Made by a program: the position numbers and the translations under genes. From IMG/VR virus record IMGVR_UViG_3300045988_069167: 63,884 nucleotides of DNA; one strand, 5' to 3'. The notes under the pieces were generated by a model. That model was not told where the DNA came from, did no database searches, and saw only the letters and a list, made by a program, of their open reading frames with translations. The stretch is from a virus. Below are positions 3,873 to 41,690 of the stretch, piece by piece. Each line of letters opens with the position of its first letter. The first letter of the stretch is position 1.

Positions 3873-6800
3873 ATGGCAGAAAGACCATTATACACTTTAT
3901 ACAAGAATCTGAAAGCGCAGAACTATGATGTGCCTAACGATTACAATAAGTTTGAAAGTGCCCTGACAAGAGACGGAAAGAGCGGTGCAGATAACAGACA
4001 CGCTATCTATGAGAACTTGAAGGCTCAGAACTTTGATGTTCCTGATACCTATGAGCGTTTCTACTCTGCACTTTTTGAACCTCGTAGTAAGACTTCATCT
4101 AGAGCGAAGGGCGGTAGTGTTCCTATGAGTGCTGCTGACCGTGCTCGTTTCTCGGCTGGGGCAGCAGCTATCTCGGCTAGTGCTCAGCAGACAATGAACA
4201 ATGTCGGAAGATACAACAGACTAAAACAACGCAAGCAGAAGCAGCAAAAGGATTTCGGTCGTGTGAACTTGGGTACACATAAGACTGCTTTTGGTGGTGA
4301 TGCAAACAATGTGGTGAAGGATGATTTCGCTTACAATCCTGAGACTGGCAAGGCTGGCGCATACGTAACATCTGACAATGAGAATGTTTATTCTCAGAAT
4401 GATGCTGAGCAGAAACAGAACCTATTGGATAAGTATGGGGAAGAATGGAACAATGCAGTTGATATGGGTGTTGTTCCTTCTGAGTTGGATAAGGCTGACC
4501 CTGATTTGTCTGACACAGATGTTGCTATGCGACAAATGGAGAGAAGACAAGAGTGGCTTGACGAGAATCAAAATAGACGTTCTAAGGAATTGAATGAGTC
4601 TATGCACTTGCAGGGCTCTCCTTTTGTTGCGTCTGGTGGAGCAGTTGCACCTTCTTCGTTTAATACGGCTATAAGCAATGAGGCAAACCGCTTGTCTGAT
4701 GTAGAGTATGGTGCTTATAATACCGCCAAGGCTTATAATCAGATGTTGCGTACTACTCTGCTTCAGGAGTTGAAGGAACAAAAGCAGAGAAATGAAAATG
4801 CTGGTTGGTGGAAAGATAAGTGGAACGATGTTTCCAATTATTTCGGTGCGATGTTTAATACCATGCTTGACCCGAAGTTATATTCTCAGGGTATTATGGA
4901 CGCAGCTATAGCAAACAATTTGCTCCAAGTAAAGAAGGGCATGGAAGATGGAACAATCAAGAAAGGTTCCAATGCAGGAAATGCAGCACAAGCTATGCTT
5001 GGTGCTATTCAGCAGCAACAAGGAGAAGCTGCTAAACAGCAGCAGTATGGAACAAAGGCTTATCAGTATGGAGACATGAGCGGTCGCTCCTTGAAGTTTA
5101 TGGCAGATTTTGCGTTAAGCGGATGGAGAAATGTTATGACTACTGGTTTTACTAAGACAGGAGAAAAGGTTGGAGAGAAAATGGCTCTCGGTGCTCTTGG
5201 TAAATGGTTTACTAAGAATACTGGTCGTGTGCTTGGTGATATAGCTGGTAGTGCAGCATTAGCGGCAACCAATCAACTTGGCTCTACATATAATAATGTT
5301 ATAGAGCGTTATGTTGGAATGAACAACGAGAATGGTGGTGTGACCCAAGACAAGAATGGCGATTTGAAGTTCAATGAAGGTGTCAGTCTTGGTAGGGCTA
5401 TCAAGGATGGCTTTGGCTCAGCTACAATAGAGAACTTCTCGGAAATGTTCGGTGAATATCTACCAGGAGCATCTAAGTTGTTGTCAAAGTTAGGGCTTTC
5501 CAAGGTATCTTCTTTTTTTGAAAAGATAGGCAATAATGCTTACTATAAATGGTTGAGTAACGCAACTAACAAATCTGGAATCCAAGGTGTGATGGCTGAG
5601 ATTTCAGAAGAGGAGTTTGGTACTGCCCTTCATGCAGCTTGGGGTGATGGAGACGGAAGTTGGAGTGACTTCAATGTTTTCACGAATCCTGATGCCAGAG
5701 AAAAGCAGATTGATACTTGCCTTGGAATGTTCTATTCTGTTGGTTTCATGCAGGCTCCTCGAACTGCTGTTGGTGCTATAAATGCTGTGCGGTATTTCAA
5801 CATCAAACATCAGGTTACCAAGGCAGACAAGTTTGGTCAGATGATGTTCAATGATAAGTGGGAGGAAATCAAAGACAAGATTGATGTGACAACGAATGCA
5901 GACTTGACTAAAACAGTCTTGGAAGCAACTCGCTCAGACTCCATGACTGCCAAGCAGAAAGGTGCGGTCATCAATTATGCTATGTTCCTTAGCAAGCTTC
6001 GAGGATTCAATCAGGCATCAGATGCTAAGACAAAAGATAAGGTTGAAGAAGGTGAAACGGCTCCAACATTATCCAACGACCTTGATGATGCTTACACAGA
6101 AGGTCACAATGCTGATGATACAGATAAGCACAATATCCAGTTGGAGCAGAACGACAAGGCGAATGAACTTGCAGCCATGTTGCATATTACTCCAGAGCAG
6201 CTACATGATATGGCAGACGAAGACTTGGAAGCTATGAATGGTCAGGATGATAAACTTGATCAAGCTATCTACGATTACCAAGTATCTACTGCCAAGTATC
6301 AGGGTGTGATGGATGGAGCACAAGACGAAGTTGATATGGCAGCACATCAGGCGGCTATGGAAACGGATAACATGACTGACCTGAGTCGTGGAACCGTCCG
6401 TAAGGCAACCATTAAAGCAACTGGTGGCTTGGAAGACTACGAGGTGTATATCATAAGTGGTAATATCGCCACTCATGATGATGGCTCTATTGACGTGGGT
6501 AATAGTGATGATATGATTATCTACTATGACCCGACAACTGGCAGAAAGGAACACGCTGATGCCATGATGTTTGCTGACCTCATCGAAGAACTCCCTGCTG
6601 CTGACGTGAAGGCTCAGGCTATTAATGATGCAAAGGAAAATGCTATCAAGAAGATTGCTGGCATCATTGATGGAACCGTTGAAGTTGGCTCCCAGTTCTC
6701 TGTTACTGATGCAGATGGAACAGAGCATACTTATGAGGTGCTCGCTGATAATGGTGATGGTACTGCCATGATTACTATTGATGGTAATGTACCTACAGAA

Positions 6801-9800
6801 CTTGTTAAGGGCGAAAATGTACAGATACCATATTCGTTTGCAGACTTGCAGCAGATGAAAGATATGGAAGACCAGAAGAGAATGGAAGCTGCCAAGGCTG
6901 AGCGTGAGCAGATGGAGAAAGAACGTGCTGAACAGCAGACTCAGGAGACAGAAGAGACTCAACCTTCATTTGATTTCAATCAGATTCTCAATGATGATGG
7001 CAACGTGGTGCTTACTGATGTACTCGGCAAGGATGGTAATACAAAATATCCAAACTCCCAGTTGTTTCTTATCCGTGATTCAGGTGCAAAAGCTAAGGTG
7101 ATGGAATTGAAGAGTGATGGCACTCTCGTTCCTCATGCGGTAAACAAGAAAGATGTGAGAACTGCTACTACTATGTCGCTCGATGAGTATAAGCAAGCAT
7201 TTGCTGCCTCCTCAATGATAGAGGATAATAGTGGAGAGAATAGAGGTGAGATAGAGGTGGAAGCTCCAACAATAGAGGGAGAGACTGCTGCTCCTGAATC
7301 TGCTGAGACTCCTGCAACAGAACAGACTCCTGCTGCTCCTGCTATTACTCTTGAAGATGGAACTATCGTACCTATGCTGGAGGATGGCAATCCTGACTTC
7401 TCAAAGCTGACTGCCGAACAGACTGCTGAGTTGTATGACTCTCAGTTTGGTGAGGATGCTGATAACGTAATTAGCGGATGGGTATCTGATGCAAAGAAGG
7501 TACTCGACAAGGCTAACAACATGACCGTGAAGGGTAAGAACTTCGTGGAACAGAAGGCTGCAAAGGATGCCAAGGAGAAGGCTATTGCTGATGCTCAGGC
7601 GGCTTATGACTCTGCTATTGCTATCCGTGATGCTTATAATGAGCGACAACTTGCCAAGGTGGAAGATACTGCTGATGGCAGAAAGAACCTTATTGAGAAG
7701 GCAAGAAGAAAGTTCGCTCGCTTGAAGAGTGCGGTGAAGGATGATGCTGAGGCGGTTGCTCAAATCTATAAGGAGACGGTTAGCTCTCTCCTTCATCGTC
7801 TGTATGATGGTACAGGCATTGATGTGACAGATACCAATCCGCTTACTGCTGAGGAGTATGTAGCAAGTAATCTCAGTGCTCACACTCTCAACTATGAGGG
7901 GACAGAAACAAGCAAGGGTGTTAAGCAGGAGACTGGATTGAGCAGAGAAGACTTTGCCAAGACCCAGTTGCTCGCTGCTGATGGCAAGGGTACTACTATT
8001 GACAACCTTGTGCATAGCTTGTGGGAAAATCGCCCATCCAACCTTGATTCGCTCAACACTCAGGATATTCGTAACGCACTTATCGGTGTACTCACAAGTG
8101 GGTTCAAGGCATCGGAAGCAAGAAGTTATGTTGAGAACATTCGTATCGCTCAGGCGGAAAAACTCATTGAAGAAGAAAGGACTGCTGCTGAGAATGCTAC
8201 ATATTACGAGCAACAGAAAGCTAAGGAGGAGGAAGAAAAGAAAAAGGCAGAACTGGAGAAGAAAGCAGAAGAGGAGAACAAAAAGGCTAAGGAAGAGAAG
8301 ACCGAGGATAATGAGCAGACAAAGTTCCCTGAAAAACTAAAGGAGGGGAGCAAGGCTATTGAAGCTCCTGGGGATGCAACGGATGAGAAGCCTTTTGGTG
8401 AACAACTTGATGAGGCTAACCTTCCTTTCTCTGCTAAGGAGAACGGCAAGAAGCAGACAACATCTGAGCGTGCTGCTGACGTGGAGAAGAATAAGGTGGA
8501 TGATATGAAGGTCGTTGACAACATCGTTGGCGAGAAGACTCGCAAGGCTTTCGCTAGACTGGCTAAGATGATGGGTGCCAACATTCAGTGGCAGTACTCC
8601 GACAAGTTGGGCAACGGCTGGATTCAGGAGACCAAGGATGCTGATGGCAACGTTCATCGTACAATCTTTATCACTCTTGACTCTTCCATCACGGAAGGTG
8701 CCCAGTTCATCTTCGGTCACGAAATGACTCACCAAATCAAGAACCTGAACCCTGCTGCATACAATGAGTTGACTCAGCTTGTGCTTGATACCTATGGCTC
8801 TGACGCCTTCGACAAGGCGGTAGATGAGACCATGAAGAGATATTCCGATGCTGGATTCTCTGGACGTGCTAGAGAATACTATGCTGAGGAGGTTGTTGCT
8901 GATGCGGTAGGTGAAATGATTCGTGACCTCAACTTGGCTCACACTCTCGCTATGAAGATGTCTCATCCTCTGCTCGCTGCTATCCATGAGATATTGCAGA
9001 AGATTAAGTTGGCATTCTTTGGCACAGAGTATAGCGATGTAACCAAGAACATCATCCGCTCTATCGAACAAGCCTACGTGAAGACTGCCAAAGGTGAGGT
9101 TACAAACTCCGAGACTGGTGAAGATGTTTCCTTCTCTCTCCGTCAAAAGCCTGAACCTAAGAAGAAGGGCATCGGCTACAAGGTGTTCGTATTGAAGGAT
9201 GGCAAACTCTATCCACCTATGGTAGCGAACCCTAATGGTGCTGCTACTCCTGTTGGTGTGTGGCTCGATGCTGATGCGGCTCCTATTGCAGGAGAAAGCA
9301 AAACTGGCAGACCTCAGGTTAAGCAGGGCGGTAGCGGTAAGTTAGCCTATAGACCAGGCTGGCATCTTGGTGTAGTGCCTTACGCTATCCAGTTCAACCG
9401 CAAGGATGCTGAGGGCAACAAGACTCTCTTCCCTAAGAACTTCGTCTTCGCTGAGGTGGAGTATGCTGCTGATGTAGATTATCAGGAGGAAGCTCGCCAA
9501 GAGGGTATCAATCCATCGGGCAAGTATCAGCACTCACTCGCTGGCTTGAAACATTTGCCTACTGATGGCTATTATATGTATCGTACCAACCCGAACCCTG
9601 AGACTGACCCTTGGATGATTACTGGTGCGATGAAGGTGAACCGTATCTTGACTAGAGCAGAGCAAGCAGACTTGGTAAGCAATGCTGGTCGTGAACCTCA
9701 GCAGATTCAGGAGGGTGATATTGTTACTGATGATGTTGTGAACAGCATCAATCAGGAGATAGCTGATGCTCCTAAGTTCTCGTTGAAGGTGTACCATGGT

Positions 9801-12800
9801 AGTGGTTCTGACTTCACTGATTTTGACTTCGACCACATGGGCGATGGTGCTGGCTCACAAGTATTCGGTTGGGGTGGCTATGTTACTTCATCCAAGAAGA
9901 TTGGCAAGAGTTATGCTACTCTGATGGATAATGACCCTTCTAAGGCATATTTTCGCATTCAGCGTTCTAATGGTACAAGGTTCGCTAAGAAATATCCTAC
10001 TCTAGAATCATTCCTGCATGGTGATAAGCAAATAGCCATGAATGACAAGTTTACAGAGCAGGAAAAGATTGACTACTACAATGAAATGAAGAAGTTGGCT
10101 GAGCCATACCACAATCTCTATGAGGTGGATATACCTGATGATAATGGCAGCAACTATCTGGATTGGGATAAGCCTTTGAGTAAAAAGCAGCAGGATTCCA
10201 TTCGTGAAGGGTTGGAGCATCTTGGTGTAGGTATTAAGACGTTAGAAAGCAAAGGTCAGTCTTTAGAGAGAACTGGAGAAAATGTTTACAATAGTACTCT
10301 GTATATTGGGTTAACTGGAACAGAGTATGATTTGCCTGAAAAAACTAAAGGGATAAGCAAGTTCCTATCTTCTGTTGGCTTTACTGGCATTAAGTATAAG
10401 GCTGGACGTAACTTTGGTGGTGCTAAAAAGGGCGATACCAACTATGTTATCTTTGAGCCAGAGGACATGAAGATTACTGAGCATACCAAGTTCTCTATCA
10501 AGACTTATCACGGTTCCCAATCATCATTTGACCACTTTGACCACTCCTTCATGGGTAGTGGTGAGGGTGCTCAGGCTTACGGCTGGGGAACCTATGTGAC
10601 CGAGGTGGAAGGTATTGCCAAGGCTTATGCTAAGCAGAATGCGGCAAAGCGGAATACTGAATACTCTTCTGCAAAGTTTGAGTATGACACAGCCAAGTCT
10701 TCTTATAACTTCGCAAAAGGTACTTACGACTTCCGTATGCAAGATATAGACAAGTTGAATAATACACTAAAATGGGCTAAGGAACAACTTGTCAAAGCTA
10801 AGGAAAGCAATCGCAAGAATTGGATTGATGAGTTCGAGGCGAGAGTGGCTGACACAGAAAGAGCTTTGAAAGAGAACCAAGATAAGTTGCAGGATGAAAA
10901 GGCTGAAATGGGTAAGGCGAAGAAAGAAATGGATGAGGCAAAGAAACGTCTTGATGCCATTCCTGAGCCTGAGCGTAATCTTTACACCGTTGAGATTCCT
11001 GACGATACTGGTAGTAACTATATTGAATGGGACGGAAAAGCACCAGACGGATTGAAGGAGAAGGTTCTTGATAGATTGTACAATGAGCGCAGAGAGGACT
11101 TCGTGGATAAAATGCGCAAAGCAGGATTTAACGATGATCAGATTAAGGAAGAGGCTGATTACACCGTCAACAAGGAGGAAATGGCTGACACATACCTTAA
11201 GCATTCCGCTACTGGTGGTGGTCTGTATCGGGATTTGTCTTATTACTTAGGAGAACAGAAGAAAGCTAGCCTATTCCTTAAGGATATGGGGATTGATGGT
11301 GTGAAGGTTATCGCCAAGCGCAACGCTGGTGGCAACAAGGAAGGCAAGATGAACTATGTTATCTTTGATGAGAACAACGCTCAGATTATTAGTCATACTA
11401 AGTTCTCTCTCCGTTTGAAGTCTGCCATTGACGAGACAGAAACCAATCCATCTGATGCGCAGAAGGAGAGTGGCAACTATAAGAAAGGACACATCAAGTT
11501 CGGTGGCTATGATTACACAATAGAAAACCCAAAAGGTTCGACTCGCTCAGGCAAGGATGCTAATGGCAAAGAGTGGAAAGTAACCATGCACGATACCTAT
11601 GGCTATATCCGTGGTAAGTTTGGTAAGGATGGCGACCATCTGGATATGTTTATTAACGACAAGGCAGACCTTGATAATTGGAATGGTGATGTGTTTGTCG
11701 TTGACCAAGTGAATCCTGATGGCTCGTTTGATGAGCATAAGGTAATGTATGGCTATGACTCCATGGATGATGCCAAAAAGTCTTATCTCGCCAACTATAG
11801 CGATGGTTGGCAAGGTCTTGGAAATATTACTGGAGCAAGTAAGGATGAGTTCGATAAGTGGCTTGATACGAGCAATCGTAAGTTAAAGCCATTTGCAGAC
11901 TATGCTAATGTAAAGTTCTCGTTGAAGGATAATCAGGGGAATCCTCTGAATCAGGATGGTACTTTGAAACTAGATAAGATTAAGTCCGTTGATGAATTGA
12001 CGGATGAAGACTTCTTGCATCCTACTAGAAATGTAGAATTGCCTAGCTTGCCAAATAAGATTGCTGATGCTATTGGAACAGAAGGAAAGCCAGTTGTTAT
12101 CAAGAAGAACATCTTTGAGCGTAATTATATGAGACATAAAGATGTTACTCCTGAATTGAGTAAAACAATCTTTAAGTCTGCTTTATACAATACTGATTTG
12201 TATGGTCAGAATCAAAAGAAAACTAGACCATATAATTGGGTACTTATCAACACAAAGGATGAGAAGGGCAATAATCGCACAGTATTATTAGAGGTAAATC
12301 CTAATAAAGATAATGTGGAAATCGTACATTGGCACTTCGTTGACGAAAGAGGATTGGAAAAAATAAAGAAGCAAGCTGACCGTGAGGACGGGCAACTCCT
12401 CATACTGCCTTCCGATAAGGAAGAGGTCGGTGCCCTTTCCGACCCTACGGTCAACTTGTCTGCTGCAAAGATAGACAATTCTTCTGAAACTGCCAAGGAA
12501 AATGGAGAAAAGTTTTCATTGAAGGATGATGAATATCTTAAAGCGGTGGAAAATGGCGACATGGAAAAGGCTCAGAAAATGGTGAATGAAGCTGCCGAGG
12601 CTGCTGGCTATTCTACCGATTCCAGCTATCAGGGCACTTCTGCCTTCAATGGTTCTGCACCTTGGGGCAATGGCTACTTCTTGACCAAGGAAGAGCGCAA
12701 GGAGGCGTGGGATAATGATGAATATGACGGAGACCAAACTTTGGGTGATTATATCCATCGTGGTATAGATGCGATGAATCTCGATTTCATAGCATTAGAC

Positions 12801-15800
12801 CCTCGTAATTATCGTGCAGCTGACCCTATGCGCAAGGAGGCTATTGATAACGTGCGTAACGCTATCCAGAAGAAGAGTGAGACTATTACCATGTATAGAA
12901 GTGTTCCTTCTGATGTTAAGGAAGGTTCTTTCAGAAATGGTGATTGGGTTACTCCAAGTCGTGCTTATGCGGTTGATAATGCTAAGGTTCATGGTTGGGG
13001 TGATAACTTCAATATTATTGAACAGAAAGTTCCTGTTGATGAAATATGGTGGGATGGTAACGATATAGCTGAATGGGGCTATGGTCGTGAGGAAGACTAT
13101 GTTAATGACACAGACTTCGCATATAAGAACACCAAGAACAACCGAAAGTTGCTTGATGCCGTTACCTATGATGATAATGGCAATGTGATTCCTTTGTCTC
13201 AGAGATTCAATGAGAATAATGCAGATGTACGCTATTCTTTGAAAGATGAGAAGACTATGTTTGGTATGCACAACATCAGTCTTGATAAGCTTCGCAAGGC
13301 TATCAAGCAAGGTGGCTTTGCCGCACCTTCCATGGGTGTGATTGACTCTAAGAATGGAATATATTCTGGCTATGGAGAGATAACCTTGATACCGAAGGCA
13401 GAGAAGATAGCAAAGAGGACTGGAAAGAACATCGGCACTTATGCCGCAGATGCATGGACTCCTATCTATCCTCCAGTAGAAAAGAAGTTTGGTGGCAATG
13501 GTGGTGATGTCGCTTACGACGACATAGAATCCGTTCCAAAGGAAATGCAAAGTCTCACAAGAAATGCCATCAACAGCTTCATGGATGGTCGTGATACAAA
13601 CAGTTTAGCTTATCTCTATTTGCATGAGAAAGGAAAAGCTCCTGAGTTGGTTCATGTTGAAGGCAAATATCCAAAGGAACTTCATGATGAGGTGAAGGGT
13701 ATCTTGGGAAAATTAAATGGTATCTATAATACTACGGATGAGCAAAAGGAGAAACTCCTTGACTTGTTTATTCGTGAGGTGTATGATGGCAATAAGGAAG
13801 AGTTTGACAATGACATCAAGAAATTCATTAAGAAAGACGAGGAGTTTATCAAGAAAAGACCTAACTCCAATATTTCCAAGGACAAACAACTTGATGTTGA
13901 TTGGATGAAGGAACATGGCTATGACTATGGGGCTTTGTCTCGTTTCGTTGATGGCATACTGCGTGATGCGGAGACTTCTGGTAAGGTGGATGAGAATGCA
14001 ACGATGAAAGCTGCACAACAATACATTCAGGACAAAGGCATGAAGGAAGACTTCGATTCATGGAAAGGAAAACTCAATGACCGCTACCAAGTGGAGGAGG
14101 TAATCTTTGCAGGATATAAGGATGATGGCAACCGCAAGTATTTGCCTAACACCGTTGAGAATGCGGTGAAGGTAATGAAACAAGATGGCAAGAATGCTTC
14201 CGTTGGTTCGGCTTCTTTCAGTCATTTCGTTGCATCTATATTGAAACCGATGGGGACTCTTGACCAAATCAGAAAGAAGAAGGGTAATCTCACAGGAAAC
14301 TATGAGGACGTTGAGAAGTTCCAAGAGAAATGGCAACCTGTATATGATGAGTTGGCTGACAAGATGCAACCTGATGCAGAACCATTTGAAAGCTATGGCA
14401 TGGACAGATTGGAAGATGCTGCCACACAGAAGAATCCAAAGAAATATGCCAAGGATGAGTATGGTGTGGACTTGACAGACGAGGACATCGACAAGTTGAA
14501 TGAACTTATTGATGCTGTAAAAAATGAGAAGCCTTCCATCTACTTTGAAACCAAGTTTATGCGCCCATACGGTCTTGACGAGTTTGAGAAGGCTATCGTT
14601 CCAAACGATACTCCAAGCGATGTGATAGATGCCTTGAAGATGGCAGGTATTGATGTGAGCAGCTATGAGCGTGGAAATGCCGAGGATAGACAGAAGGTTA
14701 CTATGGATGCTATCAATAGTAGCGACAATATTCGTTTCTCTCTGAAATCTATGATGGAGAAACCTGAGGGATGGAAACAAGCCAACAAGAAGACTATTCA
14801 TATTGCAGAAGCTATTGAGCGTGACCCTAAGTTTTCTTTGAAGAATCTTGATGGAACTCTCATTAAGGCTGGAACCTACTTTAGTGGTGGCGGTCTTGTT
14901 GAGGAAGGCTTGAAGGGTATCATCGACCCAGTGGTGGCAGTGGAGTATGACGAGAAGATAAGCGGTGTATATCGCAATAACTTCGGGCAGCACATCGTTA
15001 CTGCTGATGTTCGTGACGTTGACCCTAAAGAGTTGGTCAAGCAGATAGATGGTGAGGTGGAGTACTTCCATGCCAGCCCAGTCTGCAAGAACTACTCTCA
15101 GGCGAAGAGTAACCACGCTGAGGTGGAACTTGACAAGGAGACTGCTGCTAGTACTGCCGAGTTCATCAATGCTATTAAGCCAAAGGTGGTGACCATTGAG
15201 AATGTGAAGGGGTATAAGGATTCGGAAGCGATGAATATTATCACGGATGCTCTGGATGCCAACGGATATACTTGGGATGCAGATGTGTATAACGCTGCTG
15301 ACTATGGCGGCTACACCAACCGAGAGAGATTGATTGTCCGTGCGGTTCGTGATGGTAAACTTCCTGACAAGCCAAAGAAGATGGCACACAAGAGCGGATG
15401 GTATGAAGCTGTGGCTGATATTATCCCTACCTTGACCGAGAAGAAGAATGGTGTGGCTCCTTGGATGGATATTCGCTTGAAGGCTGATGGCATTGACTGG
15501 AGAAACATTGACAAGCCATTATATGTGATGGGTAGTGCCTATGCTGACGGAAAGGTTCCTCATGCCTTCGCTGATGAACTGCTGCCAACACTCCGAACAA
15601 AGAGCGGTGATGTGATTGTGATGCCTGACGGTAAGGTATATCGTGCCATGGGCAGAGTGCTCGCAAGAGTATCAGGAGTGAGCGATGATTACAAGATGCC
15701 ATTCTCCGAGAACCTGAGCCATACCATCATCGGCAACGGAATACCTACCCAGTTGACAGAACACGTTATTGCTCCTCTGCTTACTGGTTCTGACCCTAAA

Positions 15801-18800
15801 TTCAGTCTTAAAAAGACAAATAACGTTAAAGATTCTCGTATTATTCCTACAGATGTGGATAAAAGAGTATCTTCGCAGATAGAAAAGAAGTATGACTCTG
15901 CTATCAAGGAAGTAATGAATAAGGTTGCAGAACGTGATAAGAGACTTGTATCTAATTATATTGATCAAGACTTATCTGATTTCTCCAAGATGCGCAGAGA
16001 GGATATTAATCAAGAACTGAAAAGCAATGAGAACTGGAGACGGAAAAACTTACGAGAAGAGAATCGTGAGGGAAGTACTTATGGAATTACAGATGCGAGA
16101 CATCGAATTACCGAAGCTACAGCAGAACGAGAACTGGAGTATAGAGACGTTAGAGCAAAGTATCTCTCAGAAACTTATGGATTGCAGGGAGGAAGACAAA
16201 CCTCTCTTGATATGGTTGATAGAGCGTTTGAAGATACACTTGGAAACGAAACAAATAGAGGAGAATTACGTGAACTCTATGGAAAAGCGAGGAAGATTTT
16301 AGTTCAGGTTGGTGCTGAGTTTGGTGGTGTTGACAATGCTAAGCAAGAAGGTGACTTGGGTTTTGCAGGTACAGATAGAGATATATCTCTATTCATTGAC
16401 ACAATGACCAGAACATCTACACCACAATCAGAGTTGGCTCACACTATCCTTCACGAAATGATTCATCAAGCAACAATTGGTTCTATCAATCTCGTAAAGA
16501 AAGGTATGGCTGATGGTATGCTTACACCTAAGCAGATTGAAGCTGTGAATACCATCATTAATACTTATGATGCGTATAAGGCTGACCGAAGACTGGTTTG
16601 GGAAGAAGACAACTATCGTGATTATGGAGGTAAGGATGAGTATGAGTTTGCTGCTGAAATGGCTGATGCTAAGCAGAGAAGAATACTCAGCATTCCTTAT
16701 GGAGAAAGAATCCTGAATGCAGCTAATGAGTTGAAGAGGGTTGGTGATATTTCTTTATGGCAAGCTATCAAGAATGCTCTGAGAAGGCTCTTTGAGGTCT
16801 CAGACAAGTCAAAGATGGATAAGGCTCTCAGTGACATCATGGATGATTTCAATAAGAATATTGATTATATTTCCATGAACAATATCGAAGAGACGGATTT
16901 CGGTCTGAATGGTAATACTCGATTCTCCTTGCGCTATGACAAGTTTGAGCATGACCTGAACCAGTGGAAGAAGGATAATAATCTGCCTAAGGATGCCCAG
17001 CGACCAACCATCCCACAACGCAACGCTGGTGAGAGTGCCGTTGACTTCCTGAGGAGAGTGGACGAGTACCGCAAGCAGATGGCTCTGTGGAAGACTGCTC
17101 CAACCTACGAGCAGCATCTTCTGAGTGATGATACTGCCCTTGGAGAGTTCAACCGAGAGTTGCAGCGTGGTTCTGTGCTCAAACGTATCGCCTTCCAAGA
17201 TAGTATGCTGGCTATCCGTAAGGCTCAGGAAGCTATCATGAAGGAAGTGGGTGTTGACCGCCTGAACATGGCTGAGGATGCCTATACTGCCGAGAACCGA
17301 AGCCATGGCAAGGGCAAGAACGAGTTTGAGGAATACAACAACGAGTTCTTGCAGCCATTGAGAAAGGCTTATCATCAGATGAAGAAGGTGCTGGGTGATA
17401 GCTATGACAATGTACGTATCTACATGATGGCTAAGCATGGCTTGGAGCGTGATGCTCAGATGGCTTTCAAGAAGTCTTTGGAAGCTGACTATGAAGATGT
17501 GGCTCAGAGAAGTGCGGCATACAGGGCTTACAAGGGCGACATGAACCGAATGGGCAATGATAGCGGCTTTGAACTTGGCTACATAGACTTCAATACTTGG
17601 AGACAGAAAGATGATGCACTTAGGGCGAAATACTCTCCATCTTACATGAATTATCGCTATGATAAGGATGGAACCGCTTTTGATTATTCTGGCTTATCGG
17701 CTCTCTTCGGTGGCTCGGACTTTGAGGAAGCTGCAAGCAAACTGGTAAGGGATATTGAGAGTAGTCATGTTGTTGAGGTGCAAGACCTCTGGAATGCTAC
17801 GAATGCAGCTACCAAGAAGATTCTCCGTGATGGCTATAAGGCTGGCATGATGAGCAAAGATACTTATCAGTATGTGCGAGATATGTATAGCCATTATATT
17901 CCTCTCCGTGGCTGGGATGGCACTACTGCCGACCAAGTATGGGACTATATTGGTGGTGGAAAGGGTGCGTTCAATCAGATCTTGAAAACGGCACATGGAC
18001 GAACCTCTATCGCTGACGACCCTATCGCCTACATCGAGAATATGGCAGAAAGTGGAATCCTGCTGAACAACAAGAACTGGGTGAAGCAACATCTGATGCT
18101 CTTGGCTCAGAATCATCCTACCTCTCTTCTTACCCTGAGCAAGGCTTGGTACGTGAAGAGTGTGGATGATAACGGCAACGAGGAGTGGATTCCTGCTACA
18201 CCTCAGATTACTTCTCAGATGGATAGCAATCAGGTGAAGGCTGCAATTGATGCTTTCGAGCAGAAGATGGAGCAGATGGCCCAGACTGGCGATGCTACTC
18301 AGAAGAGAGACGGATTGAACATAGCCTATCCTCAGACTCACAGCGAGGAGAGAGAACATGAGGTAAGAGTGATGAAGGATGGCGAGGAGTACGTTATCTA
18401 TGTGAATGGTGACCCTCAGTTGGCTCAGGCGATGAACAATACAAGAGCACACCGAGTAAGAGAGATTCAGAGCGGCAAACTGGATAGGGCTGCTGCTTGG
18501 TTGGGCAGAAAGATGGCTGCTGCCTATACCAGTCTTTCACCTCTCTTCATTCCTTCCAACTACTTCCGAGACCTGACCATGACCCTTGCATCTACAGCTA
18601 TTCGTGAGGATGCAAAGTACAACTATCTGCTCAGAAAGAATCTCGCAACCTCTTGGAATCTCGGATTCATGCTGAAAGATTATCAGAACGGAAAGTTAAG
18701 GGAGAAGGTAAGCAACGGAAACGCTACTCCAAAAGAACAGATGTTCTATGACTTCATGATGAATGGTGGAGAGACTGGCTTTGTCTCTTCGCTTGATGTG

Positions 18801-20516
18801 GAAGACTTGAAGAAGAAATTCAAGAATGACTTGAAGGATTTGGATAGATGGAAGGCGAACCCAGTAAAGGTAGGGCACACCATCATGGATGGCATTGAGT
18901 TCCTGAACAGAATGATTGAGGATAGTAACCGATTTGCGGTTTACATGACCTCTATTCAGTATGGACGTTCCATTGATGAGGCTGTGAATGATGCCAAGGA
19001 CGTGACCCTGAACTTCAATCGCAAGGGTACTGGCGAATATGGCTGGCAGATGATTAGAAACCTCTATCTCTTCATCAACCCAGCAGTACAGAGTTTACAG
19101 ACCTTGGGTGCGCTTGTCAAACATCATCCTTTCAAGTTCACGGCTGTTACTGCATCATGGTTGGCGAGTGGTGTGCTGGTTCCTATCGTTAACGCTGCCC
19201 TGATGAGTCTGTTGGGCGGTGATGATGATAAGGATAAGTACTGGCAGTTCTCCAAGTGGGATAGACGGAACAACCTGATTATGTGGGTTCCTTTCACTCA
19301 TGAGTATGTGAAGATTCCGCTTGCTCAGGAGTTCCGTGCTTTCTACGGATTGGGAGATATGATTGCATCCAAGATGATGGGTGGCGAGTTGGCTGAGGAG
19401 AGTTGGAGTCAGTATGCAGAAGACTTGCTCGGTCAGGTAGTTGATATGCTTCCGCTCGACCCTACTGGATATGATGGCAATATTGCGGTCAGTCTGATGC
19501 CGAATGCTATTCGCCCAGTCTTTGAGTTGGCTTTCAATGTTGACTTCACTGGTAAGCCATTATTCAAGGAGACAGAGTATAATAAGTATGACCCTAACTT
19601 TACCAAGGCATACGTGGGCACTCCTGATTGGCTGGTACGTGCATCAAGGATGGTTAACTCAATCGGAAACGACTATCCTGATGTACAGCAGAATAGTATT
19701 GATGCTTTCGGTGACCCAAGATATAATCTGAATAACCCAGCGGTGGTTGATCACGTCTTGTCTTCCTATCTTGGTGGTGCATACACCATGGGTAGTCAGG
19801 TGCTTGGTTTGCTTACTAAGTCACTCAACGACCCGAAGGAAATCAAGGTGGCTGATATTCCATTATTCAGCAAGTTCGTCAGCAATCCTGATGATAGACC
19901 AGTTACTAAGAAACAAGGTGATGAGTTCTGGAATATGAAGGAGAACCACGACCGTGCAGCCAATACCCTGAGCAAGTTGAAGAAACAAGCCAAGGTGGAT
20001 GGCGATTACTCGATGCTGGAGCGGTTCTACGGATCTGAGGAGTATAAGCAGTACAAGCAGGATGATGTGAAGGTGAAGAAGTATGAGGAAGACAAGAAGA
20101 AGGAACGTGCTGAGGAGAGTGGAGAGGAGTATAGACCTCACAAGTTGAATGCCGAGGATATATATAAGGCTCACGCTACTCCGAAGGATGATTTCGAGGA
20201 CTTGAAGCTGAAACAACTCTACACTAAGTTGAACGGATATAAGTCTGCATACGACCTCTTGGTTGATACGGCTTCTAGTCAGAGCGATGGCTACTACAAC
20301 ACCAACAAGGCTGCCATTGATGCCATTGACGAGATTTCCCTTGATAAGCAGGAGATTTCCGAGTTAAAGAAAGGCTTCTTGGACGATGGCAAGGATGCCT
20401 ACAACGCTGAGGACATGAAACAGATTCGTGAACTGAGAAAGAAGATTCTTTCCGTGCTGGAGAGGGCTAACAAGGTAGTTGTGGCTAACCAGAAGGCGAA
20501 GGCTAAGAAAAAATAA
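3873..20516 (+). CDS. Giant multidomain polyvalent-type protein (5,547 aa), probably virion-packaged and ejected
   Basis: One uninterrupted 16,644-nt ORF. Contains HEMTH and HEMIH zincin motifs, a duplicated YHGS...GWG.Y module and a pyrophosphatase-like IENPKGS...DGDHLDMF motif. The C5-MTase motifs are complete (FSGGG, SPVCKNYS, ENV, TNRERL, GNGIP). There are 11 [KRS][FY]S[LI][KR] junction motifs and a C-terminal TM segment. Confidence 0.9.
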   Translation: MAERPLYTLYKNLKAQNYDVPNDYNKFESALTRDGKSGADNRHAIYENLKAQNFDVPDTYERFYSALFEPRSKTSSRAKGGSVPMSAADRARFSAGAAAISASAQQTMNNVGRYNRLKQRKQKQQKDFGRVNLGTHKTAFGGDANNVVKDDFAYNPETGKAGAYVTSDNENVYSQNDAEQKQNLLDKYGEEWNNAVDMGVVPSELDKADPDLSDTDVAMRQMERRQEWLDENQNRRSKELNESMHLQGSPFVASGGAVAPSSFNTAISNEANRLSDVEYGAYNTAKAYNQMLRTTLLQELKEQKQRNENAGWWKDKWNDVSNYFGAMFNTMLDPKLYSQGIMDAAIANNLLQVKKGMEDGTIKKGSNAGNAAQAMLGAIQQQQGEAAKQQQYGTKAYQYGDMSGRSLKFMADFALSGWRNVMTTGFTKTGEKVGEKMALGALGKWFTKNTGRVLGDIAGSAALAATNQLGSTYNNVIERYVGMNNENGGVTQDKNGDLKFNEGVSLGRAIKDGFGSATIENFSEMFGEYLPGASKLLSKLGLSKVSSFFEKIGNNAYYKWLSNATNKSGIQGVMAEISEEEFGTALHAAWGDGDGSWSDFNVFTNPDAREKQIDTCLGMFYSVGFMQAPRTAVGAINAVRYFNIKHQVTKADKFGQMMFNDKWEEIKDKIDVTTNADLTKTVLEATRSDSMTAKQKGAVINYAMFLSKLRGFNQASDAKTKDKVEEGETAPTLSNDLDDAYTEGHNADDTDKHNIQLEQNDKANELAAMLHITPEQLHDMADEDLEAMNGQDDKLDQAIYDYQVSTAKYQGVMDGAQDEVDMAAHQAAMETDNMTDLSRGTVRKATIKATGGLEDYEVYIISGNIATHDDGSIDVGNSDDMIIYYDPTTGRKEHADAMMFADLIEELPAADVKAQAINDAKENAIKKIAGIIDGTVEVGSQFSVTDADGTEHTYEVLADNGDGTAMITIDGNVPTELVKGENVQIPYSFADLQQMKDMEDQKRMEAAKAEREQMEKERAEQQTQETEETQPSFDFNQILNDDGNVVLTDVLGKDGNTKYPNSQLFLIRDSGAKAKVMELKSDGTLVPHAVNKKDVRTATTMSLDEYKQAFAASSMIEDNSGENRGEIEVEAPTIEGETAAPESAETPATEQTPAAPAITLEDGTIVPMLEDGNPDFSKLTAEQTAELYDSQFGEDADNVISGWVSDAKKVLDKANNMTVKGKNFVEQKAAKDAKEKAIADAQAAYDSAIAIRDAYNERQLAKVEDTADGRKNLIEKARRKFARLKSAVKDDAEAVAQIYKETVSSLLHRLYDGTGIDVTDTNPLTAEEYVASNLSAHTLNYEGTETSKGVKQETGLSREDFAKTQLLAADGKGTTIDNLVHSLWENRPSNLDSLNTQDIRNALIGVLTSGFKASEARSYVENIRIAQAEKLIEEERTAAENATYYEQQKAKEEEEKKKAELEKKAEEENKKAKEEKTEDNEQTKFPEKLKEGSKAIEAPGDATDEKPFGEQLDEANLPFSAKENGKKQTTSERAADVEKNKVDDMKVVDNIVGEKTRKAFARLAKMMGANIQWQYSDKLGNGWIQETKDADGNVHRTIFITLDSSITEGAQFIFGHEMTHQIKNLNPAAYNELTQLVLDTYGSDAFDKAVDETMKRYSDAGFSGRAREYYAEEVVADAVGEMIRDLNLAHTLAMKMSHPLLAAIHEILQKIKLAFFGTEYSDVTKNIIRSIEQAYVKTAKGEVTNSETGEDVSFSLRQKPEPKKKGIGYKVFVLKDGKLYPPMVANPNGAATPVGVWLDADAAPIAGESKTGRPQVKQGGSGKLAYRPGWHLGVVPYAIQFNRKDAEGNKTLFPKNFVFAEVEYAADVDYQEEARQEGINPSGKYQHSLAGLKHLPTDGYYMYRTNPNPETDPWMITGAMKVNRILTRAEQADLVSNAGREPQQIQEGDIVTDDVVNSINQEIADAPKFSLKVYHGSGSDFTDFDFDHMGDGAGSQVFGWGGYVTSSKKIGKSYATLMDNDPSKAYFRIQRSNGTRFAKKYPTLESFLHGDKQIAMNDKFTEQEKIDYYNEMKKLAEPYHNLYEVDIPDDNGSNYLDWDKPLSKKQQDSIREGLEHLGVGIKTLESKGQSLERTGENVYNSTLYIGLTGTEYDLPEKTKGISKFLSSVGFTGIKYKAGRNFGGAKKGDTNYVIFEPEDMKITEHTKFSIKTYHGSQSSFDHFDHSFMGSGEGAQAYGWGTYVTEVEGIAKAYAKQNAAKRNTEYSSAKFEYDTAKSSYNFAKGTYDFRMQDIDKLNNTLKWAKEQLVKAKESNRKNWIDEFEARVADTERALKENQDKLQDEKAEMGKAKKEMDEAKKRLDAIPEPERNLYTVEIPDDTGSNYIEWDGKAPDGLKEKVLDRLYNERREDFVDKMRKAGFNDDQIKEEADYTVNKEEMADTYLKHSATGGGLYRDLSYYLGEQKKASLFLKDMGIDGVKVIAKRNAGGNKEGKMNYVIFDENNAQIISHTKFSLRLKSAIDETETNPSDAQKESGNYKKGHIKFGGYDYTIENPKGSTRSGKDANGKEWKVTMHDTYGYIRGKFGKDGDHLDMFINDKADLDNWNGDVFVVDQVNPDGSFDEHKVMYGYDSMDDAKKSYLANYSDGWQGLGNITGASKDEFDKWLDTSNRKLKPFADYANVKFSLKDNQGNPLNQDGTLKLDKIKSVDELTDEDFLHPTRNVELPSLPNKIADAIGTEGKPVVIKKNIFERNYMRHKDVTPELSKTIFKSALYNTDLYGQNQKKTRPYNWVLINTKDEKGNNRTVLLEVNPNKDNVEIVHWHFVDERGLEKIKKQADREDGQLLILPSDKEEVGALSDPTVNLSAAKIDNSSETAKENGEKFSLKDDEYLKAVENGDMEKAQKMVNEAAEAAGYSTDSSYQGTSAFNGSAPWGNGYFLTKEERKEAWDNDEYDGDQTLGDYIHRGIDAMNLDFIALDPRNYRAADPMRKEAIDNVRNAIQKKSETITMYRSVPSDVKEGSFRNGDWVTPSRAYAVDNAKVHGWGDNFNIIEQKVPVDEIWWDGNDIAEWGYGREEDYVNDTDFAYKNTKNNRKLLDAVTYDDNGNVIPLSQRFNENNADVRYSLKDEKTMFGMHNISLDKLRKAIKQGGFAAPSMGVIDSKNGIYSGYGEITLIPKAEKIAKRTGKNIGTYAADAWTPIYPPVEKKFGGNGGDVAYDDIESVPKEMQSLTRNAINSFMDGRDTNSLAYLYLHEKGKAPELVHVEGKYPKELHDEVKGILGKLNGIYNTTDEQKEKLLDLFIREVYDGNKEEFDNDIKKFIKKDEEFIKKRPNSNISKDKQLDVDWMKEHGYDYGALSRFVDGILRDAETSGKVDENATMKAAQQYIQDKGMKEDFDSWKGKLNDRYQVEEVIFAGYKDDGNRKYLPNTVENAVKVMKQDGKNASVGSASFSHFVASILKPMGTLDQIRKKKGNLTGNYEDVEKFQEKWQPVYDELADKMQPDAEPFESYGMDRLEDAATQKNPKKYAKDEYGVDLTDEDIDKLNELIDAVKNEKPSIYFETKFMRPYGLDEFEKAIVPNDTPSDVIDALKMAGIDVSSYERGNAEDRQKVTMDAINSSDNIRFSLKSMMEKPEGWKQANKKTIHIAEAIERDPKFSLKNLDGTLIKAGTYFSGGGLVEEGLKGIIDPVVAVEYDEKISGVYRNNFGQHIVTADVRDVDPKELVKQIDGEVEYFHASPVCKNYSQAKSNHAEVELDKETAASTAEFINAIKPKVVTIENVKGYKDSEAMNIITDALDANGYTWDADVYNAADYGGYTNRERLIVRAVRDGKLPDKPKKMAHKSGWYEAVADIIPTLTEKKNGVAPWMDIRLKADGIDWRNIDKPLYVMGSAYADGKVPHAFADELLPTLRTKSGDVIVMPDGKVYRAMGRVLARVSGVSDDYKMPFSENLSHTIIGNGIPTQLTEHVIAPLLTGSDPKFSLKKTNNVKDSRIIPTDVDKRVSSQIEKKYDSAIKEVMNKVAERDKRLVSNYIDQDLSDFSKMRREDINQELKSNENWRRKNLREENREGSTYGITDARHRITEATAERELEYRDVRAKYLSETYGLQGGRQTSLDMVDRAFEDTLGNETNRGELRELYGKARKILVQVGAEFGGVDNAKQEGDLGFAGTDRDISLFIDTMTRTSTPQSELAHTILHEMIHQATIGSINLVKKGMADGMLTPKQIEAVNTIINTYDAYKADRRLVWEEDNYRDYGGKDEYEFAAEMADAKQRRILSIPYGERILNAANELKRVGDISLWQAIKNALRRLFEVSDKSKMDKALSDIMDDFNKNIDYISMNNIEETDFGLNGNTRFSLRYDKFEHDLNQWKKDNNLPKDAQRPTIPQRNAGESAVDFLRRVDEYRKQMALWKTAPTYEQHLLSDDTALGEFNRELQRGSVLKRIAFQDSMLAIRKAQEAIMKEVGVDRLNMAEDAYTAENRSHGKGKNEFEEYNNEFLQPLRKAYHQMKKVLGDSYDNVRIYMMAKHGLERDAQMAFKKSLEADYEDVAQRSAAYRAYKGDMNRMGNDSGFELGYIDFNTWRQKDDALRAKYSPSYMNYRYDKDGTAFDYSGLSALFGGSDFEEAASKLVRDIESSHVVEVQDLWNATNAATKKILRDGYKAGMMSKDTYQYVRDMYSHYIPLRGWDGTTADQVWDYIGGGKGAFNQILKTAHGRTSIADDPIAYIENMAESGILLNNKNWVKQHLMLLAQNHPTSLLTLSKAWYVKSVDDNGNEEWIPATPQITSQMDSNQVKAAIDAFEQKMEQMAQTGDATQKRDGLNIAYPQTHSEEREHEVRVMKDGEEYVIYVNGDPQLAQAMNNTRAHRVREIQSGKLDRAAAWLGRKMAAAYTSLSPLFIPSNYFRDLTMTLASTAIREDAKYNYLLRKNLATSWNLGFMLKDYQNGKLREKVSNGNATPKEQMFYDFMMNGGETGFVSSLDVEDLKKKFKNDLKDLDRWKANPVKVGHTIMDGIEFLNRMIEDSNRFAVYMTSIQYGRSIDEAVNDAKDVTLNFNRKGTGEYGWQMIRNLYLFINPAVQSLQTLGALVKHHPFKFTAVTASWLASGVLVPIVNAALMSLLGGDDDKDKYWQFSKWDRRNNLIMWVPFTHEYVKIPLAQEFRAFYGLGDMIASKMMGGELAEESWSQYAEDLLGQVVDMLPLDPTGYDGNIAVSLMPNAIRPVFELAFNVDFTGKPLFKETEYNKYDPNFTKAYVGTPDWLVRASRMVNSIGNDYPDVQQNSIDAFGDPRYNLNNPAVVDHVLSSYLGGAYTMGSQVLGLLTKSLNDPKEIKVADIPLFSKFVSNPDDRPVTKKQGDEFWNMKENHDRAANTLSKLKKQAKVDGDYSMLERFYGSEEYKQYKQDDVKVKKYEEDKKKERAEESGEEYRPHKLNAEDIYKAHATPKDDFEDLKLKQLYTKLNGYKSAYDLLVDTASSQSDGYYNTNKAAIDAIDEISLDKQEISELKKGFLDDGKDAYNAEDMKQIRELRKKILSVLERANKVVVANQKAKAKKK
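8580..8935 (+). other. Domain of giant ORF: zincin-like metallopeptidase module 1
   Basis: FIFGHEMTHQIKN, with HEMTH at 8718-8732 (aa 1616-1620). A downstream acidic helix reads YYAEEVVADAVGEM. Confidence 0.6.
9774..11399 (+). other. Domain of giant ORF: tandem duplicated module (aa 1968-2205 and 2206-2509)
   Basis: Both copies start KFS[LI]K.YHGS..F..FD...MG.G.G.Q..GWG.Y.T. Both contain NLY.V[ED]IPDD.GSNY..WD and end NYVIF[ED]......HTKFS. The second copy carries a coiled-coil insertion. Confidence 0.8.
11415..11912 (+). other. Domain of giant ORF: inorganic-pyrophosphatase-like module
   Basis: GNYKKGHIKFGGYDYTIENPKGSTRSG...YGYIRGKFGKDGDHLDMFIND. Matches 6 of the 7 positions of the family I PPase D-x-D-P-x-D-x signature, preceded by an E.PKG-like strand. 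Confidence 0.5.
14844..15797 (+). other. Domain of giant ORF: complete DNA (cytosine-5) methyltransferase
   Basis: Motif I YFSGGG, IV SPVCKNYS (catalytic Cys at 15084-15086), VI ENVKG, VIII TNRERLIV, IX RVLARVSGVSDDY, X GNGIPTQL. Bounded by KFSLK motifs at 14829 and 15798. Confidence 0.8.
16320..16740 (+). other. Domain of giant ORF: zincin-like metallopeptidase module 2
   Basis: AHTILHEMIHQATIGS, with HEMIH at 16452-16466 (aa 4194-4198). Confidence 0.6.
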
Positions 20517-20524
20517 ATATGGCT

Positions 20525-20562
20525 ATCCCCTGAAAGTATAAGGCTTTCGGGGGATATTTACT
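20525..20562 (+). terminator. Rho-independent terminator after the giant ORF
   Basis: atcccctgaaag / ctttcgggggat stem (one bulge) at 20525-20555, followed by a T-rich tail, 9 nt after the TAA stop. Confidence 0.7.
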
Positions 20563-41265: not shown

Positions 41266-41689
41266 CATCTATGAAGAGGTGGCGAAGACCACTGCCTACA
41301 TAGGCAAGAAGACAACCGTAGAGGATGGCAAATCGGCTTTTGATCAGATATTCGTGACGGAAGCAGACTTGGCAATGATAGAGCGGTTCTTCAACGAGTC
41401 GTTAGATGCGCTAAGAAATGTTCTGAAACGATTTATCTCAGGTGGCTCAGGAGTAGATGGAACCATCAACTGGGAACTAGAGATGCCAAGCAGATTCGAT
41501 GGCAACCTACTCAGTTCCATCAACTCGTCAGCCAACTCGTTCTTGGTAAACAGCATTATCGGAAAATGGTGCGAGATTGCCGCAAACGACAAGGTAAAGG
41601 AATATGCAGATAACGCTGCTGCATTATTGCTCGACATTAAGGATAAAGCGTTCTACAAAAAGAAACCGACACGAACAAAAATATCATAG
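41231..41689 (+). CDS. Hypothetical (structural?) protein
   Basis: 152-aa ORF with an ATG start, overlapping the previous gene by 35 nt. Confidence 0.6.
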   Translation: MADFTLTIKKNDIYEEVAKTTAYIGKKTTVEDGKSAFDQIFVTEADLAMIERFFNESLDALRNVLKRFISGGSGVDGTINWELEMPSRFDGNLLSSINSSANSFLVNSIIGKWCEIAANDKVKEYADNAAALLLDIKDKAFYKKKPTRTKIS

Positions 41690-41690
41690 T

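Follow-up and report, generated by a model that had tools for sequence, protein, structure and literature searches.

We studied a giant polyvalent open reading frame (ORF) of the IMG/VR virus record IMGVR_UViG_3300045988_069167, a stretch of 63,884 nucleotides (nt) that was analysed at full length and is called the window below. The ORF runs on the plus strand from an ATG at 3873 to a stop codon ending at 20516, encodes 5,547 amino acids (aa) and occupies about a quarter of the phage genome. We found that its product consists of a constant N-terminal region of ~1,750 aa, a variable array of ten cassettes and a constant C-terminal region of ~1,200 aa, that a short joint peptide, KFSLK or a variant of it, stands at every boundary, and that close relatives carry different sets of cassettes between such joints. 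The interpretation that we favour, with somewhat more confidence than doubt, is that the ORF encodes a virion-carried and injected effector polyprotein of the LPD38-ended 'DarB-like' class, a class known from temperate and mostly short-tailed phages; it would be cut at the joints, and its cassettes would be swapped by recombination.

Domains and joints of the giant protein

A first-pass annotation, made from the sequence alone, had described a single uninterrupted ORF of 16,644 nt at 3873-20516 and likened its product to the polyvalent proteins of Iyer, Burroughs, Anand, de Souza and Aravind (2017, PMC5512222), which hold 2 to 15 domains. We confirmed that the frame has no internal stop and ran Pfam on the protein in overlapping 1,300-aa pieces. 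Six families scored above their cut-offs, namely ART-PolyVal, InPase, LPD13, PBECR5, DNA_methylase and LPD38; five of them are defined for polyvalent proteins, and the sixth is a C5 methylase. These matches bear out the polyvalent assignment, and a T7 gp14-like gene upstream puts the ORF in a virion or ejection-protein context. A domain-by-domain profile search had been proposed as a check, and it returned enzymatic domains and no tape-measure or tail family in Pfam or PHROG; the NCBIfam scan gave a sub-threshold dcm match only. The motifs that the annotation had named were all present in the translation: the tandem N-terminal motif, HEMTH, YRPGWH, two copies each of YHGS and GWG, HEMIH, YIPLRGW and a transmembrane (TM)-like segment.

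The joint pattern, [FY]S[LI][KR], was found 11 times in the giant protein against 0.38 copies expected (at most 4 in 2,000 shuffles), at aa 1754, 1969, 2207, 2511, 2682, 2881, 3121, 3622, 3654, 3977 and 4351. An unbiased k-mer count likewise returned KFSL, FSLK and KFSLK as the most repeated 4- and 5-mers of the protein. Every copy sits 2-17 residues ahead of the start of a Pfam domain or at a boundary guessed in the first-pass annotation, which had spoken of junction motifs; all 11 copies stand at module boundaries, as in the joint-spanning peptide ADAPKFSLKVYHG. Across 228 distinct contexts of the junctions, 88% had K or R at the -1 position, which the pattern leaves unconstrained. In both of our AlphaFold2 (AF2) models, of aa 1481-2680 and of the C-terminal region, the joint fell into low-confidence, linker-like stretches. 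The motif is lineage-specific, being found where the C-terminal region of a homologue shares at least 56% identity with that of the window. Outside the lineage it was looked for only in gp55 of Bacteroides phage BKO1-TP3, which has no repeated joint, and in 81 more distant LPD38 proteins, from which it was absent save for one chance-level match in each of two. Neither the paper of Iyer and colleagues nor a full-text literature search for KFSLK yielded a description of the joint, and it appears to be undescribed.

All ten cassettes lie on the plus strand. The array opens with the YRPGWH module (cassette 1, aa 1754-1968, 9132..9776; motif at aa 1826), which matched phrog_30118 (E 3.8e-35) and nothing in Pfam. 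Cassette 2 (aa 1969-2206, 9777..10490; YHGS at aa 1974, GWG at aa 1999) is ART-like, with Pfam ART-PolyVal at aa 1971-2072 (33.2 bits, cut-off 31.2). A second ART-like copy forms cassette 3 (aa 2207-2510, 10491..11402; YHGS at aa 2212, GWG at aa 2237), in which a DUF3990-like match at aa 2210-2279 stayed below cut-off; its long helical insert was modelled by AF2 as a helical hairpin with a predicted local distance difference test score (pLDDT) >90. The pyrophosphatase-like module recognised in the first-pass annotation is cassette 4 (aa 2511-2681, 11403..11915), a type I pyrophosphatase-like domain (Pfam InPase, aa 2528-2664, E 1.6e-51) that also occurs in a solved structure, fused to the C-terminus of a portal protein (PDB 9b41_L, 'gp19 Portal', 8.6e-26), which speaks for a link to the virion. 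LPD13 fills cassette 5 (aa 2682-2880, 11916..12512; Pfam at aa 2694-2835, 1.3e-49). The sole match of cassette 6 (aa 2881-3120, 12513..13232) was phrog_2579 at aa 2982-3074, with none in Pfam. Cassette 7 (aa 3121-3621, 13233..14735) carries the predicted RNase PBECR5 (Pfam, aa 3125-3335, 1.3e-17) and a further C-terminal part, and the joint pattern scan delimited a 32-aa mini-cassette 8 (aa 3622-3653, 14736..14831) with a joint at either end. Cassette 9 (aa 3654-3976, 14832..15800) is a C5 DNA methyltransferase, and it is complete, as had been claimed: Pfam DNA_methylase at aa 3670-3966 (3.3e-30) covers positions 7-319 of 324, the full C5 catalytic motif set can be read (FSGGG, PVC, ENV, RER, GNGIP), and M.HhaI (chain residues 35-314 aligned) and M.HaeIII were matched in PDB. 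An optional second zincin, identified by its HExxH motif (HEMIH, aa 4194, nt 16452-16466), occupies cassette 10 (aa 3977-4350, 15801..16922), where a weak SprT-like match was seen (E 0.013).

The phage has two C5 methylases, one within the giant protein and one free gene. The stand-alone gene (51658-52416, minus strand; Pfam 2.8e-52) lies in the early/regulatory region, covers profile positions 2-227 of 324 only and may be truncated or split.

The N-terminal constant region (aa 1-1753, 3873..9131) was present in all 39 homologues that were rebuilt end to end, which measured 4,540-5,684 aa (median 5,248). Its first ~1,500 aa are without a known domain, and aa 1-1300 gave no Pfam, PHROG or NCBIfam match. 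Two copies of LYxNLKAQNxDVPxxYxxFxSAL (aa 9-31 and 45-67; nt 3897-3965 and 4005-4073, together 3897..4073) were read from the translation, and the acidic stretch noted in the first-pass annotation was confirmed, with a D+E fraction of ~0.20 over aa 750-1500. The region comes in two allelic types, at least 86% or about 45% identical to that of the window. Over the first 700 aa (window 3873-5972) ~16 loci were at least 86% and ~60 loci 44-46% identical, with C-terminal regions 89-96% identical, and the first ~40 residues with the tandem motif were near-identical in both types. BKO1-TP3 gp55 begins with a tandem acidic-aromatic motif of like style (LYDTFVSDGYDMESEEDF... then YDALVKEGYEMEPFEEF...; locus L167, 2267-2450). 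Judged by its sequence conservation, the doubled motif may be a conserved signal, e.g. for incorporation into the capsid.

A constant zincin domain (~aa 1530-1753, 8460..9131) closes this region. Its HEMTH motif (aa 1616, nt 8718-8732), followed ~45 residues downstream by EEVVAD, was present in 39/39 full-length homologues and lay 137-138 aa ahead of the first joint in 38 of the 39. FGHEMTH and the downstream EExxAD did not vary among seven alleles with 34-66% identity to the copy in the window. HEMTH...EExxAD is a gluzincin arrangement, and the enzyme is predicted from these motifs to be catalytically intact. The AF2 model placed a three-stranded sheet ahead of the HExxH helix (pLDDT 70-80). 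No Pfam metallopeptidase family or PDB entry was significant for the domain; Peptidase_M13 matched below threshold in 4/7 alleles (best E 0.0038), and endothelin-converting enzyme aligned its HExxH and ExxAD with those of the zincin at E 1, also sub-threshold. Enzymes of the M13 family cleave on the N-terminal side of hydrophobic residues, a suggestive preference that would fit a cut K|F at the joint.

The C-terminal constant region (aa 4351-5547, 16923..20513) is all-alpha as judged by AF2. It contains YIPLRGW (aa 4675, 17895-17915), the TM-like hydrophobic segment (aa 5097-5115, 19161-19217; Kyte-Doolittle 1.89) and LPD38 (aa 5121-5331, 19233-19865; Pfam 3.7e-23), and it matched phrog_14770 at 2.5e-135. 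Structure prediction followed by Foldseek, proposed module by module in the first-pass annotation, was applied to this region and to aa 1481-2680. In BFVD the C-terminal model (pLDDT 78.7, predicted TM-score 0.65, all-helical) matched numerous giant phage proteins in their C-terminal parts (E 2.4e-48 to 1e-20, TM 0.4-0.6), while in PDB the profile search gave nothing significant and Foldseek of the model a best E of 0.69. The model of aa 1481-2680 was poor (pLDDT 60.5) and drew coiled-coil look-alikes only from PDB; it was not used to assign folds to the YRPGWH or ART-like cassettes.

Cassette shuffling among relatives

A survey of related phages for module gain and loss had been suggested in the first-pass annotation, and it revealed extensive shuffling. 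With the C-terminal 1,197 aa as the query, 210 IMG/VR loci were found to encode a relative. The best 80 of the 210, which are 89-96% identical to the window, were combined with it into a set of 81 sequences, cut at the joint, and the pieces were clustered. We identified 74 distinct cassette orders among the 81 sequences, composed of more than 20 cassette types in a collinear order. The first part of this order runs from YRPGWH through one or two ART-like copies, InPase, LPD13 or PBECR1 and unknown cassettes to PBECR5; the second continues with ART-PolyVal or LPD23 plus zincin, a 32-aa or 73-aa mini-cassette, the C5 methylase and an ART-like cassette or the HEMIH zincin, and ends with the C-terminal region. 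Compared with the window, the cassettes of the relatives add PBECR1, canonical ART-PolyVal, LPD23 and LPD3 by Pfam. The YRPGWH cassette was present in 70/81 sequences and 91-96% identical in 69/80 related loci, the 32-aa mini-cassette was present in 30/80 related loci (31/81 with the window), and the HEMIH cassette in just 4/80. Some slots held divergent alleles that were only 28-60% identical.

We then compared the residues on both sides of the junctions. The upstream tail and the F/Y of the joint travel with the upstream cassette and the K/R at +3 with the downstream cassette, indicating that the exchange points lie inside the four-residue motif. The tail QEIADAPK|, for example, was joined to at least five different types of downstream cassette. 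The number of joints per protein was 6-11 in close relatives and reached 16 in a more distant one. Prophage copies were found in metagenome-assembled genomes of Prevotella and in the complete Segatella copri HDE04 chromosome, and the latter, a complete genome record, showed the same joint motif with yet another cassette order.

Several of these loci had peculiarities of their own. At the HDE04 locus (L087; NZ_CP152346.1, 575-13870) the giant ORF is 3,342 aa long and stops ~200 aa into the C-terminal constant region, where the opposite strand carries an ORF of 1,340 aa without a Pfam match; the prophage may have been rearranged or be decaying. At locus L002 (1-15502; C-terminal region 72% identical) one in-frame TAA, either a real stop or a sequencing error, splits the giant gene into two ORFs, one of at least 3,309 aa, whose gene call runs to 4,929 aa beyond the locus, and one of 1,839 aa. 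This pair holds 16 joint motifs, and five consecutive cassettes in it start with GEKYSLKEVN, a tandem cassette amplification. Three loci (L043, L048 and L074; cassettes c30, c31 and c35) carry ART-like cassettes cut to 15-33 aa by in-frame internal deletions, e.g. FSLKVYHGSGAMQITEHTK, which were either left behind by recombination between the two ART copies or result from collapsed assemblies. Four homologues that are ~70-79% identical over aa 1481-2680 (P0123, P0126, P0135 and P0145) have ...NGERLSAKQKRALE... after the constant zincin in place of ...DVSFSLRQKPEP, and may have a different first joint or a different first cassette. None of the homologues in the protein database exceeded ~2,100 aa, though the DNA frames exceed 4,500 aa; the public gene calls of the family are fragmentary, so that protein-level surveys underestimate its size.

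Neighbouring genes and distant homologues

The window is a complete circular phage genome of ~63.86 kb, in which an identical 24 nt (AAAGGTTTCTCTGTAAAAAGTCCA) stands at 1-24 and 63861-63884. Genes for a portal, large terminase, endolysin and tyrosine integrase were found in it, and the capsid protein is of the SU10 type (Pfam SU10_MCP, 7e-28), a podovirus type. The phage is temperate and probably short-tailed, and infects the gut bacterium Prevotella/Segatella. A near-identity DNA search with 50 kb of the window against GenBank phages revealed no relatives and only one 50-nt chance match. Two further features lie apart from the giant gene: a single tRNA-Met (CAT) gene at 57284-57363 (minus strand) in the regulatory region adjoins a Rha/KilAC antirepressor gene (57915-58790), and two adjacent plus-strand genes downstream of the endolysin (41604-42194 and 42194-42763) both matched phrog_19255 (2.9e-38 and 4.8e-29), a tandem duplication.

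Two plus-strand genes precede the giant ORF. The first (2031..2693) encodes a 220-aa T7 gp14-like internal virion (ejection) protein, whose match to Pfam T7_gp14 was borderline (E 2.3e-6, 28.1 bits, cut-off 27; profile positions 1-176 of 187) and whose N-terminus carries a hydrophobic segment (aa 2-20, Kyte-Doolittle 1.69). A sequence search of PDB with this protein gave no significant match, and a Pfam scan of its relatives gave none in tblastn fragments that were incomplete and lacked the N-terminus. The second gene (2697..3842) encodes a low-complexity protein of 381 aa, assigned to the gp15 position by its place only and without a match in Pfam, PHROG, NCBIfam or PDB. It begins 3 nt after the 220-aa gene and ends 30 nt ahead of the giant ORF, and a terminator-like hairpin with a 14-bp stem and a T-run (20524..20556, plus strand; found by consensus scan only) lies 8 nt past the giant ORF stop. 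Given these short gaps and the hairpin, the three genes appear to form one tightly packed, operon-like unit, laid out like the T7 gp14-gp15-gp16 ejection cassette. Synteny with the giant gene was kept upstream in 74/79 related loci and downstream in 74/80.

The likeness to T7 lies in three consecutive genes of rising size, of which the first matches Pfam T7_gp14 and has an N-terminal hydrophobic segment; the giant protein has its own hydrophobic segment near the C-terminus and is four times as large as gp16. Homology of the C-terminal region to gp16 was considered and dropped, as neither sequence nor fold searches supported it. The comparison concerns how these proteins may work by analogy, not family membership.

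We further searched for distant homologues of the C-terminal region by tblastn and found them in 337 GenBank phage records, including Stx-converting, Escherichia, Shigella, Vibrio, Ralstonia and Burkholderia phages and three cultured Bacteroides temperate phages. In a Bcep22-like podovirus of 61 kb, Burkholderia phage JC1, the 'DarB-like' gp69 has 4,515 aa and takes up 22.1% of the genome, and gp69 and the products of the two genes directly upstream were detected in purified virions by mass spectrometry (PMC9144972). In our search gp69 matched with E 2e-25 and ~24% identity, spanning 60% of the 1,197-aa query, and it carries LPD38 (4.8e-34). In addition, phrog_10089 matched both the InPase part and the C-terminal part of the giant protein (1.3e-12 for the latter). 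The two genes that precede gp69 on the same strand are likewise smaller (196 aa and 510 aa, against 220 and 381 here), a positional likeness only: JC1 gp67 and gp68 showed no detectable similarity to the two genes of the window and no Pfam match in common with them.

The first-pass annotation had called the size and position of the ORF unusual for a 64-kb temperate phage, and this was not borne out. Bcep22-like temperate podoviruses of 61-64 kb carry 'DarB-like' homologues of 4,500-4,600 aa that make up 22% of the genome (PMC9144972). DarB-like giants in general (Bcep22-like/Lessievirus, e.g. Bcep22 gp75; Ralstonia; Vibrio; Stx/933W-like) likewise belong to ~60-kb phages with one ORF of ~22-26% of the genome, and the characterised Burkholderia members are temperate podoviruses. 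They differ from the protein studied here in that homology is limited to the C-terminal region and that no lytic transglycosylase or helicase was found here. We rejected membership in 'DarB' itself: Pfam found no helicase and no N6-methylase, only a C5-type methylase, so that 'DarB-like' is a name carried over from annotation. The cultured temperate Bacteroides phage BKO1-TP3 (64,956 bp; PQ571269; Gut Microbes 2025, PMC12694917, a paper without discussion of gp55) is a further case. Its gp55 has 5,553 aa, ends in LPD38, contains a single HExxH and is 31% identical over the C-terminal region only, and the phage shares the gene order of integrase, small genes, a 159-aa gp14-like gene (T7_gp14, 23.4 bits, below cut-off), a 371-aa gene and the giant. 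Temperate phages of this kind are thus already known to carry a giant polyvalent ORF at a quarter of a ~64-kb genome. The Prevotella/Segatella-infecting member of this known class is new in three respects: its joint is standardised, its cassette sets are nearly strain-specific and its zincin is constant.

Proposed delivery and processing, and alternative explanations

We propose the following course of events. Judging from the homologues, the giant protein is quite likely packaged in the virion. It would be built into the capsid via its constant ends and ejected before or with the DNA, through a channel that would be formed with the two upstream proteins and to which its own hydrophobic C-terminal segment may contribute. 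In the host, the built-in zincin would cut the K|FSLK joints and release the effectors, a step that we put forward with rather more doubt than confidence. The methylase would then protect the incoming DNA, and the ART, RNase and pyrophosphatase cassettes may disable host defence or physiology. The observed pattern of gain, loss and exchange would arise by recombination inside the joint, and near strain-specific effector sets are as expected of an arms race with the defence systems of Segatella/Prevotella. In its specific form, that KFSLK is the dedicated site of the constant gluzincin and the protein a self-processing, capsid-delivered polyprotein with plug-in joints, a phage counterpart of MARTX toxins, this proposal is tentative.

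Both comparisons on which the proposal draws have limits. The polyvalent proteins of Iyer and colleagues share with the giant protein the many unrelated effector domains in one polypeptide and the domain vocabulary (ART-PolyVal, InPase, PBECR, LPDs, zincins), and delivery with DNA and metallopeptidase self-processing are likewise predicted for them; the main text of that paper contains neither the word 'linker' nor LPD13 or PBECR5, and we found no standard junction peptide or strain-level shuffling described in it. The likeness to the MARTX toxins of Vibrio (up to 5,208 aa) is a functional analogy: they have constant ends, which serve translocation, around a strain-variable effector array, and a built-in protease cuts between the effectors after delivery (PMC5218395, PMC6315884). 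MARTX toxins differ in their glycine-rich repeats, InsP6-activated cysteine protease, type I secretion and eukaryotic targets, and there is no sequence relationship; the Pfam and NCBIfam scans of the giant protein gave no glycine-rich RTX-type repeats or cysteine protease domain. In the analogy a phage capsid would be the carrier, with a zincin as the candidate protease and a bacterium as the target.

Several points weigh against a packaged and processed polyprotein. The homology from which packaging is argued is limited to the C-terminal region, at ~24% identity to JC1, the T7_gp14 match is borderline, and neither the 381-aa protein to gp15 nor the giant protein to gp16 showed similarity by sequence or structure, nor did any solved ejection protein match the 381-aa protein or the C-terminal region. 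The zincin assignment is based on motifs and a model of medium confidence. Most relatives are metagenome assemblies, in which duplicated ART cassettes could mis-assemble and inflate the count of orders. The remaining points also favour the best-surviving alternative, which we consider unlikely: that the protein is packaged and injected and acts uncut, KFSLK being an inter-module connector (a short strand or linker) and the zincins targeting host proteins. Polyvalent proteins of the N4 virion RNA polymerase type are packaged unprocessed, and the N4 enzyme, ArdC and TraC1 are transferred full-length despite their metallopeptidase domains (Iyer 2017, PMC5512222). In the ART-like cassettes the joint continues into the first strand of the modelled fold (FSLKVYHGS; AF2 strand at model residues 490-494) and could be structural there. 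The 5,553-aa BKO1-TP3 gp55 works without a repeated joint, which shows that this protein class does not require one. On the other side, such unrelated folds as the OB-fold InPase, the Rossmann-fold methylase, the zincin and the RNase have no structural need of four common N-terminal residues; the basic -1 residue is conserved though it is part of the upstream cassette; and a peptidase is the one enzyme that stays constant directly upstream of the array.

It is also conceivable, and in our view improbable, that the joint matters at the DNA level only, as microhomology or a dedicated recombination site, and that the peptide is functionless. Polymorphic toxins carry junction motifs, VENN in CdiA and DPxGL in Rhs, in which a short conserved peptide likewise marks the exact swap point of variable modules; such proteins contain a single junction each, ahead of one C-terminal toxin, against 6-11 joints in the close relatives here. 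The position of the breakpoints inside the motif would agree with this idea, as would the over-representation of TTC and TCN codons in joints relative to the rest of the gene and the identical 12-mers at unrelated junctions (W1 = W4; W3a = W5). However, the joint codons differ between copies, and we rejected the junctions as DNA repeats on this ground. The Leu/Ile codons vary (TTG, CTG, CTC, CTT, CTA, TTA, ATC), and the exact shared DNA is often only ~5 nt. Third positions vary freely across 241 distinct junction DNAs, whereas AGY Ser and AGR Arg codons, which supply 38% of Ser and 42% of Arg codons in the rest of the gene, are nearly absent from joints. Free synonymous change with almost no two-step codon change indicates long-standing purifying selection on the peptide, as read from the codons, and not a conserved DNA site. 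The two ideas are compatible, as a functional peptide would also give the sole microhomology between unrelated cassettes.

That the giant protein is not a virion component and is made in the infected cell or lysogen, to take over the host, exclude superinfection or ward off other mobile elements, seems very doubtful. The separate stand-alone C5 methylase gene speaks for it, in that not all such functions need injection. Against it, the gene lies in the structural block in a tight unit with the gp14-like gene, homologues with the same LPD38 region were found in virions by mass spectrometry (PMC9144972), and LPD38 and InPase are confined to polyvalent proteins of the phage type, which are regarded as capsid-packaged (Iyer 2017, PMC5512222). 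A purely structural giant (tape measure, tail fibre or decoration protein) would suit the great length, the acidic and helical stretches and the position among morphogenesis genes, and is hardly credible given six enzymatic or polyvalent-specific Pfam domains with no match to a structural family, short-tailed relatives that share the C-terminal region and lack a tape measure, and a cassette content that varies freely while other genes are conserved, which a structural or length-determining protein would not tolerate. The first-pass annotation had seen the giant gene as replacing tail tube or tape measure genes; given the SU10-type podovirus capsid and these short-tailed relatives, such genes are not expected, and that view was abandoned.

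Polyvalent proteins of this giant kind are believed to enter the cell as the first of a phage's weapons. With a joint at every boundary and one invariant peptidase beside the array, exact cleavage products can be predicted for a chain of 600 kDa. If the joint is indeed a cleavable plug-in joint, any joint-led cassette could be inserted in frame and released in the host, which would account for the different effector set in almost every strain of this Segatella/Prevotella phage. The relatives form a natural library: in phages that are otherwise close, more than 20 types of cassette, among them the YRPGWH cassette, cassette 6, c13 and c15, are combined in at least 74 ways. Screening of this library could turn up new anti-defence activities in Segatella copri, a major bacterium of the human gut for which few genetic tools exist, and the standard joint could serve the engineering of phage-delivered protein cargo.

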